Below, piece by piece: positions 1 through 10,826 of a DNA stretch of 10,826 nt. The notes beneath the pieces were generated by a model. It was not told where the DNA came from. It saw only the letters and a program-made list of their open reading frames with translations, and did no database searches. Every line of letters starts with the position of its first letter. The stretch's first letter is position 1. The stretch is from Candidatus Iainarchaeum sp. (GTDB taxonomy: Archaea; Iainarchaeota; Iainarchaeia; Iainarchaeales; CSSED10-239), in the NCBI GenBank assembly GCA_003559395.1, contig PWLL01000098.1:1-10826 (forward strand). The letters are read 5' to 3'. Made by a program: the position numbers and the translations under genes.

Positions 1-102
1 TTAAATAGATTTAAGAATAGTTCAGAAGGATATGAATTTCTTAATAAAAAAAACTTTTCAAAACCAAAGAATAAACCAAATTACAACAAAGTAGATTATT
101 AA
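1..102 (+). CDS. 3' end of an ORF entering from the left edge (partial, hypothetical)
   Basis: Frame 1 is open from base 1 and reads LNRFKNSSEGYEFLNKKNFSKPKNKPNYNKVDY, ending at TAA 100..102. I recognise no motif. The only support is the open frame at the edge of a gene-dense window. Confidence 0.25.
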   Translation, partial: LNRFKNSSEGYEFLNKKNFSKPKNKPNYNKVDY

Positions 103-297
103 TTTGTAAGATAGATGGTTTCATTTTATTACACCTTGTCTTTTAGTTTTTTTAATTATTTAGTTTTTATTGCAGTAACAGATATATTATCAAAAAAACG
201 TATTATTTTTTCTAAAACCGTTTTGTCTTCCAAATTTTGTGTTTTTTCTATGTGTGGTGTATATCAAAAAGTATATAATCATTTTCGTTACTATTAC

Positions 298-310
298 ATA
301 TATATAATAT
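298..310 (+). promoter_or_regulatory. Putative archaeal TATA box for rnhB (near-leaderless transcript)
   Basis: An atatatataatat run lies about 22-34 nt upstream of ATG 332, and there is no Shine-Dalgarno-like purine motif in between. The spacing fits an archaeal TATA-to-TSS distance that puts the TSS at or near the ATG. Confidence 0.35.
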
Positions 311-331
311 AATATTTTAGAAAGATAAAAA

Positions 332-1012
332 ATGATTGCAGGAATAGACGAAGCAGGAAGAGGGTGCGTCTTAGGCCCATTAGTAATTGCAGTTTGTGTT
401 ATTGATGAAAAAGATGAAGCTTATTTTAAAGATCTAGGAATCACAGATTCAAAATTAATATTAAAAGCAAAAAGAAAAGAACTTTTAGAAATTATTAAAA
501 AAAAAGCAATTGAATATAAAATTATTGCAGTCTCTGCACAAGAACTGAATCTATCTATGCAAAGATATTCTTTAAATGAAATTGAAGCACAAACCATGAT
601 GGAGCTTTTATTTTCTCTTAAAAATAAAGTTTCTAAAGTTGTTATTGATTGTCCGGATACAACCCCTCTTGCTTTTAAAAAAAGAATTGATGGTCTATGT
701 CAAATAGAAAAATATAAAAATATTTTAGACAACAACTTTTGTATAGAACATAAAGCTGATCTAAATCATATTGTTGCATCCTGTGCATCAATCTTAGCAA
801 AAGTAACAAGAGATGAACTTTTAAAAGAACTTACTTGCTCTGATATTTCTGGATATTCTTCAGATGAAAGAACCATAAAATATATTACAGAATATGTTCT
901 TGAAAATAAATGTCTTCCAGAAACTGCAAGAACAAAATGGAGTACAATAGATAAAATTATGAAAAATTTATATCAAAAAAAAATAGGGTGGTTTTGTGAC
1001 AGAAAATCTTAA
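332..1012 (+). CDS. rnhB: Ribonuclease HII
   Basis: The 226-aa ORF has the N-terminal MIAGIDEAGRGCVLGPLVIAV (GIDEAGRG...GP catalytic motif) followed by GITDSKLI (DSK motif). Both are hallmarks of the RNase HII family, and the length is typical for archaeal RNase HII. The stop is TAA. Confidence 0.9.
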   Translation: MIAGIDEAGRGCVLGPLVIAVCVIDEKDEAYFKDLGITDSKLILKAKRKELLEIIKKKAIEYKIIAVSAQELNLSMQRYSLNEIEAQTMMELLFSLKNKVSKVVIDCPDTTPLAFKKRIDGLCQIEKYKNILDNNFCIEHKADLNHIVASCASILAKVTRDELLKELTCSDISGYSSDERTIKYITEYVLENKCLPETARTKWSTIDKIMKNLYQKKIGWFCDRKS

Positions 1013-1394
1013 AAATAAACTTGATGACATTGATTTTATGATCAGAAAAATAATTAACAAATATGTTTCAAAAGAAAACCTTACTTTTGATAAACCTTTA
1101 AGCTTAAATGTGCTTTTTTCTGAAGATTATGAAGATAACTTTATAGATGATATTGAGTTTTTTTATGAAGATAAAGAAAAAGTAAAACTTACTTTGTATA
1201 TTCCTTATTCTATAAACAAACTAAGATTTGATGTTTTATCAGATAAAAAAATATCTATAAGATCTAATGACTTTTCTTTTTATAAACAGTTTTGGTTTAC
1301 TTGTCCTGTTGTTAAAGAGACTATGAAACCAACGTATAAAAATAATGTTTTAGAAATCAGTTTTTTAAAGAAAAATGGTCCCACCCAGATTTGA
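996..1394 (+). CDS. Small Hsp20/alpha-crystallin-like protein (divergent, short)
   Basis: The 132-aa ORF has a GTG start 4 nt after a GGGTGG SD-like motif (986..991) and overlaps the rnhB 3' end by 17 nt. An alternative in-frame ATG lies at 1038. The C-terminal half (KVKLTLYIPYSINKLRFDVLSDKKISIRS...FYKQFWFTCPVVKETMKPTYKNNVLEISFLKK) follows the alpha-crystallin pattern: xPG-like strand, L.I.g, F.R.f.LP..v, A.y.nGvL.I.lpK. It ends at TGA 1392..1394, which lies inside the antisense tRNA-Val gene. Confidence 0.45.
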   Translation: MTENLKNKLDDIDFMIRKIINKYVSKENLTFDKPLSLNVLFSEDYEDNFIDDIEFFYEDKEKVKLTLYIPYSINKLRFDVLSDKKISIRSNDFSFYKQFWFTCPVVKETMKPTYKNNVLEISFLKKNGPTQI

Positions 1395-1448
1395 ACTGGG
1401 GATCTCTACCATGTCAAGGTAGCATCCTAACCACTAGACCATAGGACC
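1376..1448 (-). tRNA. tRNA-Val (anticodon GAC)
   Basis: The reverse complement reads GGTCCTA TG GTCT AGTGGTTA GGAT G CTACC TTGACAT GGTAG AGATC CCCAG TTCAAAT CTGGG TGGGACC A. It folds into a full cloverleaf with a 7-bp acceptor stem (one G-U), a 5-bp anticodon stem, a TTGACAT loop giving anticodon GAC, and a TTCAAAT T-loop. There is no intron and no encoded CCA. It is a GC-rich island in AT-rich DNA. Confidence 0.9.
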
Positions 1449-2170
1449 TATTTTTTATGTTTTTGTATTCTTTTTACTCCAGATGTTAAATGCTTAGATA
1501 TTTTATGTCTGTTTACTAATAATATTGTAGAAAGTAAAATTAATAAAATGATTGCTATAACAGTCATAACTCCACTAAGTTTACTTATTTGAAAACCAAG
1601 AAAACTTAAAAAAATTACCATGGGATATCTACCAAACGCAAGTGCTAAAAAATATTTTTTATAAGAAAGTTTAGTCAATCCAGCAACATAACAAAAAACA
1701 TCGTTTGGAATTGCAGGAAGTAAAAATAAAATAAATAACGTCATTGTTAAATTGGTTTCTTCAATATTATCAAACTTGTTAATATGCTTTTTGTGAACAA
1801 TCGTTTCAACAAAAGGTCTTCCTAGTTTTTTTGCTAAATAAAATGTAAAAAAAGAACCAATTGTTATTCCTATTAATGAATAAAGTGAACCTAAATAAGA
1901 ACCAAAAATGTATCCACTAACTAAGATTAAAGGAGTTGCAGGTATAATTGCAAGCATGATTTGTGTAAGTTGTAAACCAATAAAGATGATTGGTGCATAA
2001 ACACCAAACCCTAAAATAAATTCTTTTGACTGCGAAACGTTTGAAAAAAATCTAACTAAAGAAAAACCAACAAAAAGAGCAAACAAAATAAATAGACTTA
2101 TGAATATAATTGCAATAATTGCTTTTTTTTTATTTTTTTGTGATGAAAAAAATGGTATCTTCTTTATCAT
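1448..2170 (-). CDS. DedA / TVP38-TMEM64 (SNARE-associated) family integral membrane protein
   Basis: The 240-aa polytopic hydrophobic ORF contains LILVSGYIFGSYLGSLYSLIGITIGSFFTFYLAKKLGRPFVE, which matches the core signature of the family (G[YF]..G...G......G....F...R..GR). The TAG stop is at 1448..1450, and its final G is nucleotide +1 of tRNA-Val. Confidence 0.7.
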   Translation of the reverse strand: MIKKIPFFSSQKNKKKAIIAIIFISLFILFALFVGFSLVRFFSNVSQSKEFILGFGVYAPIIFIGLQLTQIMLAIIPATPLILVSGYIFGSYLGSLYSLIGITIGSFFTFYLAKKLGRPFVETIVHKKHINKFDNIEETNLTMTLFILFLLPAIPNDVFCYVAGLTKLSYKKYFLALAFGRYPMVIFLSFLGFQISKLSGVMTVIAIILLILLSTILLVNRHKISKHLTSGVKRIQKHKK

Positions 2171-2296
2171 TTTATCTCTTTTTTTAAATGAAGGCTATTT
2201 TGGGCTTTGTTTAACTTAATATATATATACTTTTCGGTACAACATATATTTATTTAAGAATTATTTTGTTATAAAATATTCTTGTCTTTATAATTA

Positions 2297-2309
2297 TTAT
2301 ATATATAAA
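2297..2309 (+). promoter_or_regulatory. Putative TATA box for rpl15e
   Basis: A ttatatatataaa run lies about 40-50 nt upstream of ATG 2347. The predicted TSS falls downstream of the ORF-track ATG at 2323 and upstream of the GAGGAG SD at 2336..2341. Confidence 0.35.
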
Positions 2310-2346
2310 GATTAAAAAACAAATGTATTTTAAAAAGAGGAGTATT

Positions 2347-2955
2347 ATGGCTACAGCACAAAAATATATTAGAGAAAATATACAAAAAGAATTTAAGAAA
2401 GAAAAAGATAGTGATTATGACTATAGATCATTATATACAAAAAAATTAATTGGTTATAGAAACTTAAAAGAAACAGTAACCAAACTTGAAAAACCATCCA
2501 ACATCTCAAGAGCAAGAACTCTTGGTTATAAAGCTAAACAAGGTGTTGTTGTATCTCTTGTTAAAGTAAGAAAAGGGTCTGGAATAATGAGACGCCCAAG
2601 CAAAGGAAGAAGACCAAAAAGAATGGGTGTTAACAAGTTAACAAGAAGAATTTCAATACAAAGAATGGCAGAAAACAAAGCAGACAATAAATTTCCAGGA
2701 TTAGAAGTGCTTAACTCTTATCTTGTAGGAGAAGATGGACAACATAAATATTATGAAATAATTTTATTAGACCCAAATCATCCATCAATAATAAACGATA
2801 TGGACTATAACTGGATTTGTTCAGAAAAACACAAAGGCAGAGCACACAGAGGGCTTACAAGTCAGGGAAAAAAGAACAGAGGTCTTGAAAATAAAGGAAA
2901 AGGTACTGAAAAAAATAGACCATCTAACAGAAGAAATGATAGAAAGGCAAAATAG
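2347..2955 (+). CDS. rpl15e: 50S ribosomal protein L15e (eL15)
   Basis: The sequence MATAQKYIRE...LEKPSNISRARTLGYKAKQGVVVSLVKVRKGSG..RRP.KGRRPKRMGV..L....S.Q..AE......FPGLEVLNSY.VGEDG..KYYEIILLDP.HP.I......NWI......GRA.RGLTS.GKK.RGL is the eL15 family pattern along its whole length. I prefer the start at ATG 2347, which is preceded by GAGGAG, over the ORF-track ATG at 2323. The stop is TAG. Confidence 0.9.
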   Translation: MATAQKYIRENIQKEFKKEKDSDYDYRSLYTKKLIGYRNLKETVTKLEKPSNISRARTLGYKAKQGVVVSLVKVRKGSGIMRRPSKGRRPKRMGVNKLTRRISIQRMAENKADNKFPGLEVLNSYLVGEDGQHKYYEIILLDPNHPSIINDMDYNWICSEKHKGRAHRGLTSQGKKNRGLENKGKGTEKNRPSNRRNDRKAK

Positions 2956-2974
2956 TGCCTTTTTATTTATTTTG
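2943..2974 (+). terminator. Stop-codon-spanning hairpin plus T-rich tract after rpl15e
   Basis: aaaggca (2943..2949) pairs perfectly with tgccttt (2956..2962). The 6-nt loop aaatag contains the TAG stop. A tt-a-ttt-a-t-ttt T-rich run follows, and oligo-T tracts are the known archaeal termination signal. Confidence 0.45.
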
Positions 2975-3014
2975 TTAACTAAAGATAATAGACTTTAAAA
3001 TAAAATGTGAAAAT

Positions 3015-3257
3015 ATGTTTTTAATTGGAACACTTGAAGAAGCATTGTGGATTGTCTTACTTATTTTTTTTGCAGTGTCTATTTATTTTTTGAGTAAGAA
3101 AAAACTAGCTAATGAAACAGTTGCAGTTCTTTTAACAATATTTATTGTTTATATTTTGTTTTTTAGATTTAGAAGTTTAGTATGGTTAGTTGCAATAGGT
3201 GTTGTGATATATTGGGTATACGGAAGCGATATTAAAAACATTTTAAAAAAGAAGTGA
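3015..3257 (+). CDS. Small hydrophobic membrane protein (hypothetical); possibly the N-terminal half of a longer TGA-containing ORF
   Basis: The 80-aa ORF has two or three predicted TM stretches (WIVLLIFFAVSIYFL, VAVLLTIFIVYILFF, LVWLVAIGVVIYWVY). It ends at TGA 3255..3257, and the downstream ORF is in the same frame. Confidence 0.5.
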   Translation: MFLIGTLEEALWIVLLIFFAVSIYFLSKKKLANETVAVLLTIFIVYILFFRFRSLVWLVAIGVVIYWVYGSDIKNILKKK

Positions 3258-3263
3258 TTTATT

Positions 3264-3563
3264 TTGGATATTTTTAGTTTTGTAATGATGTTTTTTTTTA
3301 TATTTTTTACAATACAATATAATTTTTATTTATTTACTTTTTTAGGCCTTTTTATTTATGCAATTGCAATGCCTTCTATCTTTAATATTTTTTTAGTAAT
3401 TTTTTTAATAGTTGTTTCTTTTTTTTTAAATAGTTTTTTTGCTTTTTTCTTACCTTTATCTTTTTTTCTAATTATTTTTATAGTTGTTATGTATTTTATA
3501 AAAGGCGAGCAAAAGCCACAACAAAATGACGGTATGTCAGGTCTTGAAGATCTTTTTAAATAA
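3264..3563 (+). CDS. Phe/Ile-rich hydrophobic membrane protein (hypothetical)
   Basis: The 99-aa ORF in the track starts at a TTG codon, and the first ATG is at 3285. It is extremely hydrophobic, with an acidic/polar tail (KGEQKPQQNDGMSGLEDLFK). It is in frame with 3015..3257, separated only by TGA plus two codons. The stop is TAA. Confidence 0.45.
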   Translation: MDIFSFVMMFFFIFFTIQYNFYLFTFLGLFIYAIAMPSIFNIFLVIFLIVVSFFLNSFFAFFLPLSFFLIIFIVVMYFIKGEQKPQQNDGMSGLEDLFK

Positions 3564-3566
3564 TTT

Positions 3567-4136
3567 TTATAATTTATTTAGTATGTTTCTATTTTCTTCA
3601 AGAATATCTTTCATTATTTTTGTAAGACCTTTTACTTCTGTTTTTATTTCTGATATATCTTCTTCTAGTTTTTTTACTATGTTTTTTATTTCCAATATAT
3701 CTTTATTATCTAGTGTTTCGTCATTTGTTTTTAATTTTGCTTCTAAATCATCATGTTCTTGATTTTTTTTATCAACATCATCAGAAGTGACCTTTAGTTC
3801 TTCTTCATGTTTGTCTTCTTTTTCTTTATCAATATCATCAAATATACTTTTTCCTTTTTTTTCTGGTTTTGATTTTTCTTCAGGTTCTTTTTTTTCTGGT
3901 TCTGGTTCTTCTTCAGTTTCTTTTTCTGGTTCAGATTTTTCTTCAGGCTCTTTTTTTTCTGGTTCTGGTTCAGAATCAGATGTTTGAGAATTCATTTCGT
4001 TATAATGTTTTTCAATATCTTCTCTATCTACTCCAATATCTTCTAAAGTAGAATATATTGTGTCTTTATCTACATTTGCATCAAGTAGTTCTTTTATTGT
4101 ACTTTTTATTAATTTTACATCAACCATATTAATCAT
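3567..4136 (-). CDS. Acidic protein with a Glu/Pro/Lys-rich repeat linker and a C-terminal coiled-coil (hypothetical)
   Basis: The 189-aa ORF has three parts. The N-terminus is a small helical module (VKLIKSTIKELLDANVDKDTIYSTLEDIGVDREDIEKHY). The middle is low complexity, with EPEPEKKEPEEKS occurring twice. The C-terminus has a heptad-like charged segment (ILEIKNIVKKLEEDISEIKTEVKGLTKIMKDILEE). The stop is TAA, and the gene converges on the previous gene with a 3-nt gap. Confidence 0.6.
   Translation of the reverse strand: MINMVDVKLIKSTIKELLDANVDKDTIYSTLEDIGVDREDIEKHYNEMNSQTSDSEPEPEKKEPEEKSEPEKETEEEPEPEKKEPEEKSKPEKKGKSIFDDIDKEKEDKHEEELKVTSDDVDKKNQEHDDLEAKLKTNDETLDNKDILEIKNIVKKLEEDISEIKTEVKGLTKIMKDILEENRNILNKL
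3871..3971. repeat. Direct in-gene duplication: two 38-nt copies, 63-nt period
   Basis: 3871..3908 (gatttttcttcaggttcttttttttctggttctggttc) and 3934..3971 (the same, with one t/c difference) differ at a single position. The 63-nt (21-codon) offset encodes the duplicated EPEPEKKEPEEKS on the minus strand. Confidence 0.85.
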
Positions 4137-4285
4137 TTTTTATATGTTCTTCTTATATTTTAAGGATTAAATCTTTATAAATATATTCTTTCTTTAAAAA
4201 AACACAAATATAAAAATAACATACATAATAAAAATGTTTCTGTAATAATATAAATAAAGACAATAGTTAAAAAAAAAGAAACAAT

Positions 4286-5725
4286 ATGTTATCACTAAAC
4301 ACCTGGGATATTCTGTTTGAAGGAAAATACGGCTCACAAGAACTTACAATCCTTTATAAAGATGATTTTTTCGTGTCTTTTTTAAAATCAAGAGACAAAA
4401 AAGATATTCTTGTTCAAGTTTATAAGATCTTTGTTGTTTATGGAGAAGTAGAAGTATTTGCAGAAACTTTGCCTGGAAAATGTATAGTTTATCAAAAACA
4501 TTTTGATGCAGGTGAGAAAAACACACATAAGTTTTTTATGTTAAATACAGAAACAGAATATGTGGACAATAATACTCTTTCTTATCATGTAGATAAAAAA
4601 ATAGAAGAACTTAATAAAAAAACAGGCACAATTGTTTCTATAATGAAATCATATGATCTAAAGTTAGTTTCATTAAAAAATATTTCAAAAGAGAAGAAAG
4701 ATTTTTTTTATTCAGATCCTTTTGTTGTAAAAACTTTAACAAATATGCCTATGTCAGCACAAATGTCAGGAGTTACTTCTATAGATAAACTTTTGTTTGG
4801 TAAAAAAAATAAAATTCCAATAAATCTGACTTTAGAAAATTTAAAATCTGTTTTTGTTTCTGGAGCAAAAGAAGATGATAGATTATTTGTTCTAAAATTA
4901 ATTTCAGAAATATATCTTCTGTCATCAAAAACAGTTGTTATCTTTGATAAAAAAGGCGTTTTTAAGAGTCTTGCATATCCTCAACAAAATGAAGAACTAT
5001 TACAAGAATTTGATCCTGTATTAGGTGCTTTTGGTTTTCCTTCTAAGTTTGTTGATTATTTTTCAAATCTAAAAATTCCGTTAGGGTCAATACCTAAACA
5101 AGGATTTATTCATCATTTTAAATTTACAGATACTGGTGAGAAAATAATCTATGAGTGTTTTGATGAATCATTGATTTTTATTAATGACTTAATTGAAAAA
5201 ATAAATAAACTTGAAATTAGTGATGATATAACAGAATTTGAAAAAAAAAGAATAATTTCAAAGTTGTTGATTATTGATAAAAAATATGGAAAATATTTTG
5301 GAAAAATAGATGTTTCTTTTTTGTTTGAAAATAAATATAAACATCTTGGTTATTCAAAGATATTAAAACTAGATTATGATTGCCCTTTTGTTGCTTATTA
5401 TGTAAAAAAAATAATAGAAGAACTTTCTTTAAATATAAAAGAAGATCTATTGTTAGTTTTACCAGAAGCAGAAAATATATTAAATCATTTGTTTGTTGGC
5501 AAAAACATTTCTTCTTTTATACAAGAAAATCCAAAATTGAATGTTGCTATTAGTTCTGAATATAAAACAAATATAAAAGATATAAGTTATTTAGATGTGT
5601 TTGTTGATGTGGTTGGTGGAAATGATGTTGTTATCAAAAGACCTAATAGAGATCCTATGAGAGTCTTTTTAAGACCGACTTTAAGTAGTAGTAATATTGT
5701 TCTTAAAAAATCAATAAGTATCTAG
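4286..5725 (+). CDS. Hypothetical 479-aa protein; possible HerA/DUF87-like fold with degenerate Walker motifs
   Basis: This long clean ORF ends in TAG. The segment LLFGKKNKIPINLTLENLKSVFVSGAKEDDRLFVLKLISEIYLLSSKTVVIFDKKGVF parallels the HerA/DUF87 arrangement (short ligand-like lead-in, beta-strand, P-loop, helix, then vvIfDp.GEy), but SGAKEDD replaces GxTGSGKS. Similarly, LLLVLPEAENIL sits where the Walker B/EEAH motif would be. Family membership rests on my pattern recognition only. Confidence 0.6.
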   Translation: MLSLNTWDILFEGKYGSQELTILYKDDFFVSFLKSRDKKDILVQVYKIFVVYGEVEVFAETLPGKCIVYQKHFDAGEKNTHKFFMLNTETEYVDNNTLSYHVDKKIEELNKKTGTIVSIMKSYDLKLVSLKNISKEKKDFFYSDPFVVKTLTNMPMSAQMSGVTSIDKLLFGKKNKIPINLTLENLKSVFVSGAKEDDRLFVLKLISEIYLLSSKTVVIFDKKGVFKSLAYPQQNEELLQEFDPVLGAFGFPSKFVDYFSNLKIPLGSIPKQGFIHHFKFTDTGEKIIYECFDESLIFINDLIEKINKLEISDDITEFEKKRIISKLLIIDKKYGKYFGKIDVSFLFENKYKHLGYSKILKLDYDCPFVAYYVKKIIEELSLNIKEDLLLVLPEAENILNHLFVGKNISSFIQENPKLNVAISSEYKTNIKDISYLDVFVDVVGGNDVVIKRPNRDPMRVFLRPTLSSSNIVLKKSISI

Positions 5726-5825
5726 TTCTTAATTATTTTTGTGAAAATCAAACAAAAAGATAGCTTTATATAGAAGAACAACCCTAAATATTTATATAGG
5801 TTTGCTTTTTTAAAATAAACAAAAC

Positions 5826-5833
5826 TTTATATA
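5826..5833 (+). promoter_or_regulatory. Consensus archaeal TATA box (TTTATATA), proximal promoter of tfb
   Basis: An exact TTTATATA is preceded by an A-rich BRE-like aaaac, 62-69 nt upstream of ATG 5895. The predicted TSS near 5858 leaves a short leader carrying the GGAG SD at 5881..5884. Confidence 0.5.
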
Positions 5834-5894
5834 CTTATTTTTAATAAAAAACAAATTTTTTTAAAAACATAAAAATTTTAGGAGCGTTGTTAGT

Positions 5895-6800
5895 ATGGTT
5901 TTAAAATGTCCAGAATGTGGAAAAAAAACAGTCTATAGAGACTCAAAAACAGGAGAATATGTTTGTAGAAGTTGTCACGTTGTTGTAAACGAAGACCAAA
6001 TAGATTCAGGAAAAGAATGGAGAGTTTTTCAAGATAATGCAAATCAAGAAAGAGTAAGATCTGGCTCACCAATGAAATACGTAAAAATGAATAAAGGTCT
6101 TGAAACAATGATAGAAAGATCCGGAAGAGATCTAAGAGGAAACAAACTATCAACAAAATCAAGAGCACAAATGTACAGACTTATAAAATGGCATAAAAGA
6201 TCTTCTGTATCAAACTCAATGGAAAGAAATCTATCTATAGCTTTAACAGAGCTAAGAAGAATTGGATCTTATTTGAACATATCTGATTCATTAATAGAAA
6301 CTGCAGCCCTTTTATATAGAAAAACTGTAGAAAAAGGATTGATTAGAGGAAGATTGATTGAAGCAGTCGTTGCAGCTGTGTTGTATTCTGTGTGTAGAAC
6401 ATATAATGTGCCTAGAACACTAAACGAGATGGCAGAAGCATCAGGATTAACTAAAAAAGAAATTGGTAGAACATATAGATTTATTGTAAAGGAATTAGAT
6501 ATTGCAGTTCCTTTGACAGATCCTTCATATTATATCTCTAGATTTGTTGCAGTTCTTGGATTAAGTGGTAAAGTCGAAGAAAAAGGAAAAGAAATTGTAA
6601 AAAAAGCAATAAAATCAGGCTTGATTTCAGGAAGAGGCCCAACAGGTGTTGCTGCTGCGGCAGTATATATTGCAGCACTTCTTGAAGGAGAAAGAAGAAC
6701 TCAAAAAGAAGTTGCAAATGTAGCTGGAGTAACAGAAGTTACTATCAGAAACAGATATAGAGAACTTAAATCTAAGTTGAAACTAAAAGTAGATGCTTAA
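5895..6800 (+). CDS. tfb: Transcription initiation factor IIB (TFB)
   Basis: The 301-aa ORF has an N-terminal zinc ribbon (CPECG...x15...CRSCHVV) followed by two cyclin-fold repeats with typical TFB strings (RNL..AL.EL.RI...L......ETAA.LYRK.VEKGL.RGR..E...AA.LY..CR, then GR.P.GVAAAAVYIA). The C-terminal region GVTEVTIRNRY.EL matches the helix-turn-helix of the TFB family. The stop is TAA. Confidence 0.93.
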   Translation: MVLKCPECGKKTVYRDSKTGEYVCRSCHVVVNEDQIDSGKEWRVFQDNANQERVRSGSPMKYVKMNKGLETMIERSGRDLRGNKLSTKSRAQMYRLIKWHKRSSVSNSMERNLSIALTELRRIGSYLNISDSLIETAALLYRKTVEKGLIRGRLIEAVVAAVLYSVCRTYNVPRTLNEMAEASGLTKKEIGRTYRFIVKELDIAVPLTDPSYYISRFVAVLGLSGKVEEKGKEIVKKAIKSGLISGRGPTGVAAAAVYIAALLEGERRTQKEVANVAGVTEVTIRNRYRELKSKLKLKVDA

Positions 6801-6822
6801 AAAGCATCTTTTTTCTTTTTTT
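6791..6822 (+). terminator. Stop-codon-spanning hairpin plus oligo-T after tfb
   Basis: agatgctt (6791..6798) pairs perfectly with aagcatct (6802..6809) across a 3-nt loop. The TAA stop (6798..6800) straddles the stem-loop junction. The tract tttttcttttttt (6810..6822) follows. Confidence 0.5.
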
Positions 6823-6838
6823 CTAAAAGGTATCTAAT

Positions 6839-7741
6839 ATGTCTAACCAAATATATGATGTGCTTATTGTTGGTGGAGGACCTGCAGGTCTAACAGCATC
6901 AATATATTGTGCAAGATATAAACTTAAAACCAAAATATTTACTGATTCTTTTGGAGGTACAATGTCAGATGCACACAAAGTTTGTAATTTTCCTTCATAT
7001 AAAGAAATATCTGGAATGGAACTTACAAAAAAAATGATAGACCAAGCCAAATCATTAGATATAGAAATTGATTTTGAGACAGTTGTTGATATAAAAAAAG
7101 AAAAAGAAGTTTTTATAGTTGATACCAAAACACAAACCCTAAGATCTAAAAAAATTGTTCTAGCAATTGGACGAAAAAGAAGAAAATTAGATTTGCCAAA
7201 AGAAAAAGATTTTTTAGGAAAAGGTGTTAGTTATTGTGCAACATGTGATGCCAACTTTTATAAAAATAAAATCGTTTCTGTTGTTGGTGGTTCAGATGCG
7301 GCAGTTACTGCAGCTTTGTTATTATCAGATATTGCAGAAAAAGTATATTTGATATATAGAAAAGAAAAGCTAAGAGCAACTCCTTTGTGGATTGATAGTT
7401 TATCTAAAAAAGAAAATGTTGAAGTTTTATATAATACAGAAATAACAAAACTTCTTTGAGAAGAAAAATTAGAAAAAATAGAAACAACCACAAAAAACCT
7501 AGAAACAGAGGGACTTTTTATAGAGATTGGAAGTATTCCTCAAAAAGAATTTTTAAAAAAAATAAATATTAAAACTAACGAGCAAGGCTATATTGTTGTT
7601 GATGAAAAACAAAAAACAAATCTGGAAGGAGTTTATGCTGCAGGAGATGCAACCACTTCTTCAGAGCTTAAACAAATAATTACTGCAGCTTCTCAAGGAG
7701 CAATTGCTGCATATAATGTTTATAAAGAACTAAAAAAATAG
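6839..7741 (+). CDS. trxB: Thioredoxin-disulfide reductase (low-Mr TrxR) with one in-frame TGA at 7457..7459
   Basis: The N-terminus has the FAD motif DVLIVGGGPAGLTASIY, the redox-active CATC, and the NAD(P)H motif VVGGSDAAV. The ORF track stops at TGA 7457..7459, but the same frame continues without interruption to TAG 7739..7741. That continuation encodes the rest of the family pattern (GLFIEIGSIP, GVYAAGD, ITAASQGAIAA). The full length is 300 codons, typical for TrxR. The gene is either recoded/read through, or a very recent pseudogene or a sequencing error. Confidence 0.8.
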
Positions 7742-7787
7742 TTTTTTTGAAAATAAAGAAATAGTTAGTATTTTAAATATAATCAGA

Positions 7788-7802
7788 CTATATATATATA
7801 AT
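7788..7802 (+). promoter_or_regulatory. Putative TATA box for the 7830 gene
   Basis: A ctatatatatataat run lies about 28-42 nt upstream of ATG 7830, with a GGTGA SD-like motif at 7818..7822. Confidence 0.35.
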
Positions 7803-7829
7803 GTAAAAAATATTTTTGGTGAAAAATGT

Positions 7830-8336
7830 ATGAAGACTATTTTTTCAAAGGTTTTTAAAAAAAGAAACGAAGATGGAAGCGAATTTGAAATAGACGAGCA
7901 AACGATAATACAAAGTAGAGTTTCTAAAAAAAGAGAAATAAAAGACTATAAAGACTATAGTTCAAAAGATGTTGCTTGGTTGTCAAAACACTTAGCAAAA
8001 ATTGACGAAGTTGTAAACAAACAATCTTTAGGTTCTAAAAATAAAGCCTCTTTTGTTGTTGATGGTCATAAATATTATAAAGATGATGCTACAAGAGAAC
8101 TATTTAATAAAATGTATGATAATTATACAGCCTATTTTTATGCCTTAAAAAGATACATAATTGTAAGAAAAGAATTGTTGAAATTTAACGAACTAGAAAG
8201 AGAAGATAGTTTTTTAGCAGCTGGACAAATAAAAGAACTTGATGACGAAGCTGCAGAAATTGAAAAAAATCTTAATCTTTATTTAGATAATATAAGAAGA
8301 ATAAAAAATTTACTAAGAGAATCAGTAGGATTATAA
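7830..8336 (+). CDS. Hypothetical protein (168 aa, charged, predicted helical)
   Basis: This clean ORF has an SD-like GGTGA upstream and a TAA stop. I recognise no motif. The C-terminal part (ELDDEAAEIEKNLNLYLDNIRRIKNLLRE) looks coiled-coil-like. Confidence 0.55.
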   Translation: MKTIFSKVFKKRNEDGSEFEIDEQTIIQSRVSKKREIKDYKDYSSKDVAWLSKHLAKIDEVVNKQSLGSKNKASFVVDGHKYYKDDATRELFNKMYDNYTAYFYALKRYIIVRKELLKFNELEREDSFLAAGQIKELDDEAAEIEKNLNLYLDNIRRIKNLLRESVGL

Positions 8337-8340
8337 CTTT

Positions 8341-8538
8341 TTAGACCATTCCTTTTGCCATTCCCTTAGTTGTTCTTAAACATTTTTTATGCCAATATTG
8401 GCCACCCCATTTTTTATCACAACCAGGTTGATTACATAATGCGCATGTTTCGTTAGGATACTTTGCGTTTGTTAAATCTATTTGTGGTGTTTTTTCTTTT
8501 GGTTTTTTTTCTTTTTTAAATATTTTTCCTATACCCAT
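8341..8538 (-). CDS. Small Lys-rich Cys/His protein (putative zinc-binding, hypothetical)
   Basis: The 65-aa ORF has a basic N-terminus (KIFKKEKKPKEKT) followed by CALCNQPGCDKKWGGQYWHKKC, that is C-x2-C-x4-C...H-x2-C. This resembles a small treble-clef or zinc-ribbon ligand set. The stop is TAA, and the gene converges on the 7830 gene with a 4-nt gap. Confidence 0.5.
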   Translation of the reverse strand: MGIGKIFKKEKKPKEKTPQIDLTNAKYPNETCALCNQPGCDKKWGGQYWHKKCLRTTKGMAKGMV

Positions 8539-8558
8539 AATATCACATTTTTTATATA

Positions 8559-8631
8559 TAGCCCGAAGGAGATTTGAACTCCTGTCACAAGATCCAGAAT
8601 CTTGTATGCTTGGCCACTACACTATCGGGCT
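8559..8631 (-). tRNA. tRNA-Gln (anticodon CUG)
   Basis: The reverse complement reads AGCCCGA TA GTGT AGTGGCCAA GCAT A CAAGA TTCTGGA TCTTG TGAC AGGAG TTCAAAT CTCCT TCGGGCT A. It has a perfect 7-bp acceptor stem with an A1-U72 pair (typical of archaeal tRNA-Gln), a 5-bp anticodon stem, and a TTCTGGA loop giving anticodon CTG. There is no intron and no encoded CCA. Confidence 0.88.
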
Positions 8632-8637
8632 GTAAAT

Positions 8638-9720
8638 CTATCCATAAACTATTTTTTTTGCCAGATCTTTATTTTCTTGAGCCTTTTTTTGATGATTTTC
8701 AAGTAAGTTTGTTAAAAACAAAATACAATTTTGTTTACATTCTCCACAAAGAAGATTTCCTTGTTTACATCTTTTGTACGTTTTTTCTAAAAAATCATCT
8801 TCTTTGTTATGAAATTTAAAAACTTCATAAACTTTACAAATCTCAGGAGTTCCACCATTTTTTTTTTGATCATCTAGAGATACTTTTCCGCCTGTAAAGG
8901 CTTTGTTTATTTTTTTTTTAATATCTTCTTTTTTATCATTTAAAAAAATTGCACTTTCTTTTTCAGAAGAACTCATTTTTGTTCCTTCAGTAAGTCCTGA
9001 TTGCATTGTATAGTATATAAAAGAAGGCACTTCCATATCATAATTTAATCTTTTAACAACATCTCTTGTTAATCTTGCATGAGGATCTTGATCGATTCCT
9101 ATTCCAACAATGGTTGGTGTTTTTCCTTCATATTCAGGAAGTTGAAGATGTAAAATATCTGCCAACTGCAAAATAACTGCAGAAACTTTGCCAAGATCTT
9201 GGTGTCCATAAACTGCTTTAAACATGTTTTCTGTAATTTTTTTAGAAACTTCGTAAGTTAATTGATAATATTTATTTTCTTTTTGGGATTGAACATAAAT
9301 TTCTTCAGGTTTTAAACCTAAAGCTAACAAATCACAAACATTTTCTACTGCAATTTTTTTTGATTGTTCCATAGATGATATTTTTTTATCATCTCTACTA
9401 ACATACGCGTCAATGTCAGCAACACCATATAGACATTTTGCACCCATTTGTTTTATGGCTAAAAAAAGTTCAATATTTAGTTTGTGTCCTAGATGATAGT
9501 TTCCAGAAGATGCAATTGCTGTCAATTGTATAAATTTTTTATTTTTATCTATTGCTTGTTTTATTTTTTCAAAATCTCTATGTGCAATAACTATTTTTCT
9601 TCTAAAAAGATAGTTGTTGGATATGTTATAATCACTAAACTCTTTAAGCCCAAATTCTTTAAAAACATGTTTGTAATTATTTATATTTTTTGAACTCCAA
9701 GGATCTATTTTTTCATTCAT
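8638..9720 (-). CDS. trpS: Tryptophan--tRNA ligase (archaeal/eukaryotic type)
   Basis: The 360-aa ORF shows a DPW motif near the N-terminus, LFRRKIVIAHRDFEKI (the RRgi..sHRD block of archaeal/eukaryal TrpRS), the HIGH-class motif SGNYHLGH, the KMSKS-class motif KMSSS, GIDQDPH, and C-terminal LLCGECK. The stop is TAG, 6 nt before the tRNA-Gln 5' end. Confidence 0.88.
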   Translation of the reverse strand: MNEKIDPWSSKNINNYKHVFKEFGLKEFSDYNISNNYLFRRKIVIAHRDFEKIKQAIDKNKKFIQLTAIASSGNYHLGHKLNIELFLAIKQMGAKCLYGVADIDAYVSRDDKKISSMEQSKKIAVENVCDLLALGLKPEEIYVQSQKENKYYQLTYEVSKKITENMFKAVYGHQDLGKVSAVILQLADILHLQLPEYEGKTPTIVGIGIDQDPHARLTRDVVKRLNYDMEVPSFIYYTMQSGLTEGTKMSSSEKESAIFLNDKKEDIKKKINKAFTGGKVSLDDQKKNGGTPEICKVYEVFKFHNKEDDFLEKTYKRCKQGNLLCGECKQNCILFLTNLLENHQKKAQENKDLAKKIVYG

Positions 9721-9738
9721 ATTTTTTCACAAATTATG

Positions 9739-9755
9739 TTATATATAATATATTG
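9739..9755 (-). promoter_or_regulatory. Putative TATA box for trpS (near-leaderless)
   Basis: On the minus strand, aatatattatatataac lies about 20-35 nt upstream of the ATG (9718..9720), with no SD-like motif in between. Confidence 0.35.
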
Positions 9756-9834
9756 CAAGAAAACCTATTTAAACAAAATGTTTTTTAGAATTTTCTTTTA
9801 TAATAATAAAAACTATTAAAAACTGTTTGTATGA

Positions 9835-9846
9835 ATATATTTATTA
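9835..9846 (+). promoter_or_regulatory. Putative TATA box for the pilin-signal/GLUG gene
   Basis: An atatatttatta run lies about 20-35 nt upstream of the ATG cluster at 9865/9868/9874, divergent from the trpS promoter. Confidence 0.3.
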
Positions 9847-9864
9847 ATTTTAAAGACATTTTAG

Positions 9865-10826
9865 ATGATGCATATGTTTAAAAAAAATAAAGGACAAGGA
9901 GCACTAGAATATTTGTTAATTATTGGAGGAGCTATATTGGTTGCTATTATCGTTATTGTTGTTCTCACATCAACTGGTAGAGAAGCATCAGAAACAATTA
10001 CAGAAACAACAGACATTTATTCAGATTTAGTAGATTCATCTATTTATCCTCCAGAAATATTAAATGTTGATTGTAATTATGAACACGTGTCTATATCTTA
10101 TAATGACTCTATAACAACAGGAGTTACAGAATACTGTTTAGTGATAGATGGTAACCCATCCCCTATATGTTTGGGTAAAGAAAACACAATCTTACATTTT
10201 GATGAATTTCTTTTATTAGAAAATCAACATAGAATATCATTAGTTGCAAAAAAAGGAGGACGTTTTTCTGAATTTTCAAGAAGTTCTTCATGTTATCCTT
10301 CTAAAGTTGATTTTAGTTGTGATAGTAGTTCTTCTCAGATTAGTGGTTTGATTTTTGATACACATGAAAAAGAGTTTATTAATACAAATATTGTTTTTTG
10401 TTTAGATTATTTAGAAAATATAAACGAGAATGCTGATAATCTAAGTAAGAACTATCTTCTTGTAAAAGATCTTAATTTTAATGATGTAGAAGATTATATT
10501 GATGTTGATAAAAAGAATAACTGGACAACAGGAAATGGATGGGAGCCAATCGGCAATGAATCTGAACCATTTACTGGTGGTTTTGATGGTCAAGGATATA
10601 TAATTAGTAATTTAGCTGTTGACCGATCAGAAGAAGATTATGTTGGGTTGTTTGGATATATAGATGAAGCAATAATAAAAGATTTAGAATTAAGGAACAT
10701 AAATATAAAAGGGCATGTAAGAGTTGGCGGATTAGTAGGACATAATCAAAATGGAATTATAACTAACACTTCTACTTCTGGTATTGTTTCTGGTAGTAGC
10801 AGAGTTGGCGGTTTAGTTGGACATAA
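9865..10826 (+). CDS. Surface protein with a class III (archaeal type IV pilin-like) signal peptide and GLUG-type repeats; 3' end truncated by the window
   Basis: This ORF is absent from the ORF track because it has no stop codon in the window; I translated it by hand. It reads MMHMFKKNKGQGALEYLLIIGGAILVAIIVIVVLTS..., giving a basic n-region, KG|QGALEY (Glu at +5 after the predicted prepilin-peptidase site) and a hydrophobic helix. A Cys-containing middle region follows. Then comes WEPIGNESEPFTGGFDGQGYIISNLAVDRSEEDYVGLFGYIDEAIIKDLELRNINIKGHVRVGGLVGHNQNGIITNTSTSGIVSGSSRVGGLVGH, the GLUG-motif repeat pattern. The frame is open to the last base. The true start may be ATG 9874. Confidence 0.75.
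   Translation, partial: MMHMFKKNKGQGALEYLLIIGGAILVAIIVIVVLTSTGREASETITETTDIYSDLVDSSIYPPEILNVDCNYEHVSISYNDSITTGVTEYCLVIDGNPSPICLGKENTILHFDEFLLLENQHRISLVAKKGGRFSEFSRSSSCYPSKVDFSCDSSSSQISGLIFDTHEKEFINTNIVFCLDYLENINENADNLSKNYLLVKDLNFNDVEDYIDVDKKNNWTTGNGWEPIGNESEPFTGGFDGQGYIISNLAVDRSEEDYVGLFGYIDEAIIKDLELRNINIKGHVRVGGLVGHNQNGIITNTSTSGIVSGSSRVGGLVGH
10720..10826 (+). repeat. In-gene direct repeat with an 81-nt period (GLUG repeat units)
   Basis: agagttggcggattagtaggacataa (10720..10745) and agagttggcggtttagttggacataa (10801..10826) share 24 of 26 nt at a spacing of 27 codons, each encoding RVGGLVGH. The array probably continues beyond the window. Confidence 0.7.

Follow-up and report, generated by a model that had tools for sequence, protein, structure and literature searches.

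Is UGA read as a sense codon in this archaeon, or does a thioredoxin reductase gene in a deposited contig only appear to say so? The question is raised by a stretch of 10,826 nucleotides (Candidatus Iainarchaeum sp., assembly GCA_003559395.1, contig PWLL01000098.1, positions 1–10,826), the whole of which is hereafter called the window, and in which the reading frame of a TrxB-like enzyme is broken by one TGA. The first-pass annotation of this DNA, made from the letters alone, offered two readings, namely that UGA is decoded as a sense codon, with glycine as the fitting residue as in genetic code 25, or that a GGA codon has become TGA by a nonsense change or a base-call error, and it added that the former would be remarkable in an archaeon. 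That judgement was right, and a UGA reassignment in an archaeon would have been a first, yet recoding is excluded here by the evidence given below. The two features at issue are as follows.

6839..7741, + strand: TrxB-like low-molecular-weight thioredoxin reductase gene (trxB); 300 codons plus TAG, with only codon 207 disrupted
7457..7459, + strand: in-frame TGA, codon 207; base 7457 is T in the window and G (GGA, Gly) in the sister contigs L001 and L002

The window has a GC content of 26.6%, and its genes are archaeal, including those for RNase HII, ribosomal protein L15e, TFB, an archaeal-type TrpRS, and a protein with a class III signal peptide; tRNA-Val and tRNA-Gln are also encoded. GTDB representative genomes contain no close relative, the best being a Woesearchaeota MAG at 54%.

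Structure of the interrupted thioredoxin reductase gene

Translation confirmed the course of the frame as first described: it opens with ATG at 6839, runs through 206 sense codons to the TGA at 7457–7459, and continues unshifted for 93 further sense codons to TAG at 7739–7741. The motifs GLFIEIGSIP, GVYAAGD, and ITAASQGAIAA all lie 3′ of the TGA, again as had been noted, and the Pfam profile Pyr_redox_2 spans both sides of it, with profile positions 1–208 in the N-terminal piece and 216–291 in the C-terminal piece, so that the two pieces represent a single domain cut in two. The conceptual 300-residue thioredoxin reductase (TrxR) aligned end to end with PDB entries 3f8p (E-value, 8.7e-64), 4zn0 (6.3e-61), and E. 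coli 1cl0 (1.9e-38), its best PDB relatives being archaeal and bacterial TrxRs (3f8p and 4zn0; E-values about 1e-61 to 1e-64). The FAD-binding GxGxxG motif is present as GGGPAG at residues 12–17, the redox-active CATC occupies residues 133–136, with C133 and C136 invariant among 120 homologues, and the C-terminal GD motif, GVYAAGD, is found at residues 264–270.

Residue 207 pairs in BLASTP with the glycine of the E. coli segment ...EEVTGDQ...; the placement of the TGA on the Gly of the E. coli TrxB TGD turn, made in the first-pass annotation, was sound, and the E. coli segment given there was right, the sequence compared here being exactly that of PDB 1cl0_A. In the alignment of the 120 homologues, the column at the TGA, the composition of which had been marked down for checking, holds Gly in 118 and Ala in 2, and never Trp. 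Gly207 is the near-invariant glycine of low-Mr thioredoxin reductases. Thus, in every tested feature save the continuity of its frame in this record, the trxB gene is that of an ordinary low-Mr TrxR.

Codon 207 in sister contigs and more distant relatives

A look-up of the TFB protein of the window yielded two sister contigs, L001 and L002, both of which carry the same locus. L001 (JGI 3300000563, SL_3KL_010_SED; 8,733 bp) shows 17 differences from the window over 8,539 positions (99.80% identity), and L002 (Logan assembly of SRR490129; 6,222 bp) shows 9 substitutions and 1 indel over 6,223 positions (99.84% identity). Both contigs have G at the position corresponding to 7457 of the window, giving GGA (Gly) at codon 207 and an intact trxB ORF of 300 codons; the uninterrupted frame of ~300 codons is therefore present in L001 and L002, and broken in the window by the TGA at codon 207. 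Nine more distant loci, with TrxRs 74–79% identical, have GGA or GGT at this codon, so that a codon of this kind occurs in 11 of 11 related loci and the TGA is conserved in none. For use as an outgroup, we took L004, a 119-kb NCBI contig (GCA_015657915.1) that is wholly syntenic with the window and whose TrxR is 74% identical.

A 49-mer scan of a metagenome collection, in which position 7457 was given as K (G/T), matched only a GGA contig. The truncated product of 206 residues is on record in no indexed public assembly, and the index of public assemblies contained neither a Trp207 product, nor the products private to the window (those of 479 aa and 80 aa, and TrpRS), nor an independent assembly with the haplotype of the window. 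The comparison of TGA with GGN in close relatives, which the first-pass annotation had proposed, thus gave GGA in the two contigs of ~99.8% identity and GGA or GGT in the nine others. This outcome supports its second reading, a GGA-to-TGA nonsense change or base-call error, and shows that its guess of Gly as the proper residue was correct. The same annotation had made its recoding reading depend on what sister genomes carry at this codon, and because the sister contigs carry GGA, that reading is refuted.

Private differences of the window and their sequence context

Differences private to the window were counted over the 6,223 bases that are covered by the window, L001, and L002 together. There are seven: three are synonymous (3693 and 3696, an adjacent pair, and 6147), one is intergenic (4282), one is a Leu/Phe exchange at 5210, a variable site with Ile in the outgroup, and two are G-to-T changes. 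One of the latter is the base at 7457; the other lies in a small membrane-protein ORF.

3015..3257, + strand: 80-aa membrane-protein ORF; its TGA stop at 3255–3257 is genuine and provides a control for TGA as a stop, and the L004 orthologue ends in TAG
3091, + strand: private G-to-T change, TGG (Trp) to TTG (Leu), at codon 26 of the 80-aa ORF; the Trp is conserved in the outgroup L004

These two sites, the only private G-to-T changes in the window, share one sequence context, TTGGAG being changed to TTTGAG at both. The hexamer TTGGAG has three forward copies and one reverse-complement copy in the shared 6,223 bases, and two of the four are changed (post-hoc P about 9e-6). Each is a damaging change at a position where the residue is conserved in the outgroup (Trp26 and Gly207, respectively), and in both cases the new T is a copy of the 5′ neighbouring base. 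The shared hexamer suggests either a context-specific error or a mutational hotspot. The private synonymous changes, among them those at 3693 and 3696, have the look of true variation between strains.

The G-to-T change at 7457 is private to this deposited record and is neither a programmed feature nor a new genetic code. We judge that the T most likely entered the assembly behind the window as a base-call or consensus error dependent on sequence context, a reading to which we give a probability of roughly 0.6. A single G-to-T difference turns GGA (Gly207) into TGA in the deposited record; on this reading, the true codon of the organism would be GGA, and a normal 300-aa TrxR would be made, as in the two sister contigs. 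The hexamer context common to both sites would reflect a sequencing or assembly artefact rather than mutation in vivo, and the miscalled base, equal in both cases to the one on its 5′ side, would be the product expected of phasing or carry-forward. An error is favoured because two damaging changes share one exact context, while the other private differences look filtered by selection. Against it, the private synonymous changes indicate that the window represents a truly distinct haplotype, and a real private nonsense allele is accordingly plausible; the coincidence of the hexamers was noticed post hoc and involves two events only; and an in-vivo hotspot of G-to-T change (of the 8-oxoG type) would give the same pattern. 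In addition, a k-mer normally has to occur repeatedly before a de Bruijn assembler accepts it, which makes a purely random error improbable except in the case of low coverage or of a systematic fault.

The T as a possible real allele of one strain

The strongest alternative is that the T is real and that a recent GGA-to-TGA nonsense mutation in one strain has made trxB a fresh pseudogene or a segregating deleterious allele, leaving a non-functional fragment of 206 residues without the C-terminal FAD-binding GD motif. We consider this quite possible, if clearly the less probable of the two. It agrees with the status of the window as a separate haplotype, defined by seven private differences over 6.2 kb of which three are synonymous, and with the general observation that G-to-T transversions are common in AT-rich reduced genomes. 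The lesion is also single, the 93 downstream codons being intact and specifying the same amino acids as in the sisters, as expected of a very recent event. With one lesion and a TrxR product otherwise identical to those of the sister contigs, trxB does not look like a decaying pseudogene. However, neither the T allele nor the protein variants private to the window were found in any other indexed assembly, and TrxR is kept intact in all 120 relatives sampled. Two independent damaging mutations would account less readily than a systematic artefact for the exact hexamer shared with the only other private G-to-T change, which likewise falls on a conserved residue, given that the remaining private changes look filtered by selection.

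A real allele would amount to no more than a loss of trxB private to one strain of a DPANN-like archaeon, and the finding is an ordinary one whether it is an error or a real nonsense allele. The case illustrates cleanly that a single private base is enough to make a MAG contig simulate a codon reassignment.

TGA as a stop codon in the lineage

The use of TGA was surveyed in the window and in related genomes. In the 12 credible genes of the window, TGA occurs in frame at 2 of 3,106 codons, compared with 43 and 147 occurrences in the other two frames, a depletion of the same kind as that of TAA and TAG. The 21 genes of L004 contain no in-frame TGA, as against 52 and 193 off-frame occurrences, and stop usage in that contig is 12 TAA, 8 TAG, and 1 TGA. 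A further 16 genes from L005 and L011 likewise have none, so that in-frame TGA is absent from 37 genes of three related genomes (L004, L005, and L011). No other conserved gene with an in-frame TGA was found in the window or in these ~37 genes.

Two other TGA triplets of the window were weighed as evidence on decoding, and they concern the following features, in addition to the 80-aa ORF listed above.

3264..3563, + strand: 99-aa membrane-protein ORF with a conserved TTG-GAT start; a separate gene that is by chance in frame with the preceding 80-aa ORF
1392..1394, + strand: TGA ending the ORF 996–1394; located within tRNA-Val(GAC), 1376–1448, minus strand

The TGA at 3255–3257, present in the window, L001, and L002, was rejected as support for recoding on account of the TAG and the 7-nt indel in the outgroup. 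The L004 orthologue of the 80-aa ORF has the identical C-terminus, ...DIKNIFKKK, followed by a TAG stop, and owing to the 7-nt indel after it the 99-aa ORF lies in a different frame with the same conserved TTG-GAT start; the TGA is a real stop. A comparable exchange is seen in the UPF0175 gene, which ends in TGA in L005 (in an ATGA overlap with trxB) and in TAA in L011. The TGA at 1392–1394 was rejected as proof that TGA is a stop, as it lies in tRNA-Val on the other strand. The 132-aa ORF 996–1394 that it closes is itself conserved, and the overlap of its last six codons plus TGA with the opposite-strand tRNA-Val(GAC) is found likewise in L004. Taken together, TGA is an ordinary, rarely used stop codon of this DPANN-like archaeal lineage.

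Two products of public gene callers read TGA as Trp. P0001, an entry in a large protein collection that was called from the record of the window itself, has 300 residues with Trp at 207, and the Logan caller, at 743–1291 of L002 (3015–3563 of the window), read through the TGA at 3255–3257 to give a fused product of 182 residues. Both result from a TGA = Trp table applied by the callers to an archaeal contig of 26.6% GC and are not evidence of recoding; the fusion is false because the outgroup has the 7-nt indel between its two ORFs. Public protein collections have thereby acquired two false products, a TrxR with Trp207 and a fused membrane protein of 182 residues.

These data bear on the reading in which UGA is decoded as sense (as Gly in code 25, or as Trp in code 4) and ordinary translation yields the 300-aa TrxR. 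That the TGA falls exactly on a conserved Gly, that the genome is low in GC and probably small, like those of known UGA-recoded lineages, and that few genes of the window end in TGA would all agree with it, as would the readthrough by two public gene callers on these contigs, although this reflects a translation table and not biology. Nevertheless, GGA is found in the sisters at 99.8% identity, and strains so close to each other cannot have different genetic codes. The depletion of in-frame TGA in ~50 genes of four related genomes is like that of TAA and TAG; for Gly, GGA is used 86 times in the window, against one TGA at most; and at the ends of the 80-aa ORF and of the UPF0175 gene, TGA stands in the place of a TAG or TAA in the orthologues. 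The window and 10 related loci, which cover a small part of any genome, yielded no tRNA bearing the UCA anticodon, and a search of the literature turned up no published case of UGA being reassigned in DPANN archaea. Hence, of the properties by which a UGA-sense code (25 or 4) is recognised, recurrence of the codon in frame, TGA that does not terminate, and conservation in relatives, none was observed, and the reading of UGA as Gly is refuted; sense decoding, as Gly or as Trp, is highly improbable. An equally small chance attaches to a variant, for which nothing in the present data speaks, in which the T is real and some full-length TrxR arises by low-level near-cognate readthrough, UGA termination being weak, at an early stage, in a DPANN archaeon. 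For sense decoding or programmed recoding of any form, the chance overall is very small.

Programmed recoding at codon 207 alone, an improbable reading

The least probable reading of all, selenocysteine insertion or signal-directed readthrough at codon 207 alone, can appeal to UGA being the Sec codon and the leakiest stop and to the animal high-Mr TrxRs being selenoproteins, but Sec replaces a redox Cys and not a structural Gly, the CATC redox centre is intact here, and the sisters have GGA. Neither a SECIS nor any other recoding element was detected in a permissive Rfam scan of 6800–8400 (E-values up to 10), and the 104 nt that follow the TGA gave no better fold than shuffled sequences did (z = 0.09). 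The homologues have Gly or Ala, rather than Cys, in the codon-207 column. An RF2-like +1 frameshift at CUU-UGA, a context resembling the bacterial RF2 site, was also considered and rejected, since the ORF continues in frame 0 and a shift would destroy the protein.

Other features of the window and the outgroup contig

Several other features were observed in the course of the analysis. Of the 17 positions at which the window and L001 differ, 8 are clustered at 1489–2272, in a VTT/DedA-family membrane gene and upstream of it; five of these 8 fall in coding sequence and three of the five are non-synonymous, the stretch being locally hypervariable between strains. The 189-aa ORF 3567–4136 (minus strand) is strongly acidic, with EPEPEKKEPEEKS-type repeats, and the syntenic site of L004 is a run of N, an assembly gap at the repeat. 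Between this acidic ORF and TFB lies the 479-aa ORF 4286–5725, which has no Pfam match and is syntenic in L004 with 348 of 480 residues identical.

The 65-aa Cys-rich ORF 8341–8538 (minus strand; ...CALCNQPGCDKKWGGQYWHKKCLR...) adjoins tRNA-Gln(CTG) and has the same C-terminus in L004, L005, and L011; its orthologues have no Pfam family in public gene calls, and it may be a zinc-ribbon protein. The ORF 9865–10824, open at the end of the window, encodes a signal peptide of the archaeal class III (pilin) type (...KGQGALEYLLIIGGAILVAIIV...), and ...VGGLVGH... motifs are repeated near its end. In L004, the segment 13060–18596 contains genes for an asparaginase-domain protein, a GatB-like protein, and the RuBisCO large subunit, and content of this kind has been reported from DPANN archaea.

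Comparison with known systems

In having an in-frame UGA in a thioredoxin reductase, the locus resembles the selenoprotein TrxRs of animals, which are high-Mr enzymes with Sec as the penultimate residue at the C-terminus. They belong to another enzyme class, however, and the position and role of the UGA differ; no SECIS accompanies the UGA of the window, which stands in place of Gly and not of Cys. The likeness to code 25 (UGA = Gly), used by Gracilibacteria and Absconditabacteria/SR1, is that the TGA stands in the conserved Gly column of a housekeeping enzyme, and the organism of the window, like the hosts of that code, is low in GC, uncultured, and probably of small genome. In contrast to code 25, there is one instance only, the sisters of 99.8% identity have GGA, the organism is archaeal, and no tRNA-UCA was seen; moreover, in-frame TGA is depleted here, and TGA closes genes for which the stop in the orthologues is TAG or TAA. 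Code 4 (UGA = Trp), known from Mollicutes and some endosymbionts, is evidently the table that public callers applied to these low-GC contigs, but the codon-207 column is Gly or Ala and never Trp, and the fused 182-aa product is false by virtue of the 7-nt indel in the outgroup.

The system that the gene matches is the low-Mr TrxB, as represented by Sulfolobus TrxB-3 (3f8p), 4zn0, and E. coli 1cl0, with which it shares homology over the full length (E-values about 1e-64 to 1e-38), the GGGPAG FAD site, the redox CATC, and the C-terminal GxxAAGD, residue 207 corresponding to the Gly of the E. coli TGD. It departs from these enzymes in a stop at codon 207, and in this record only.
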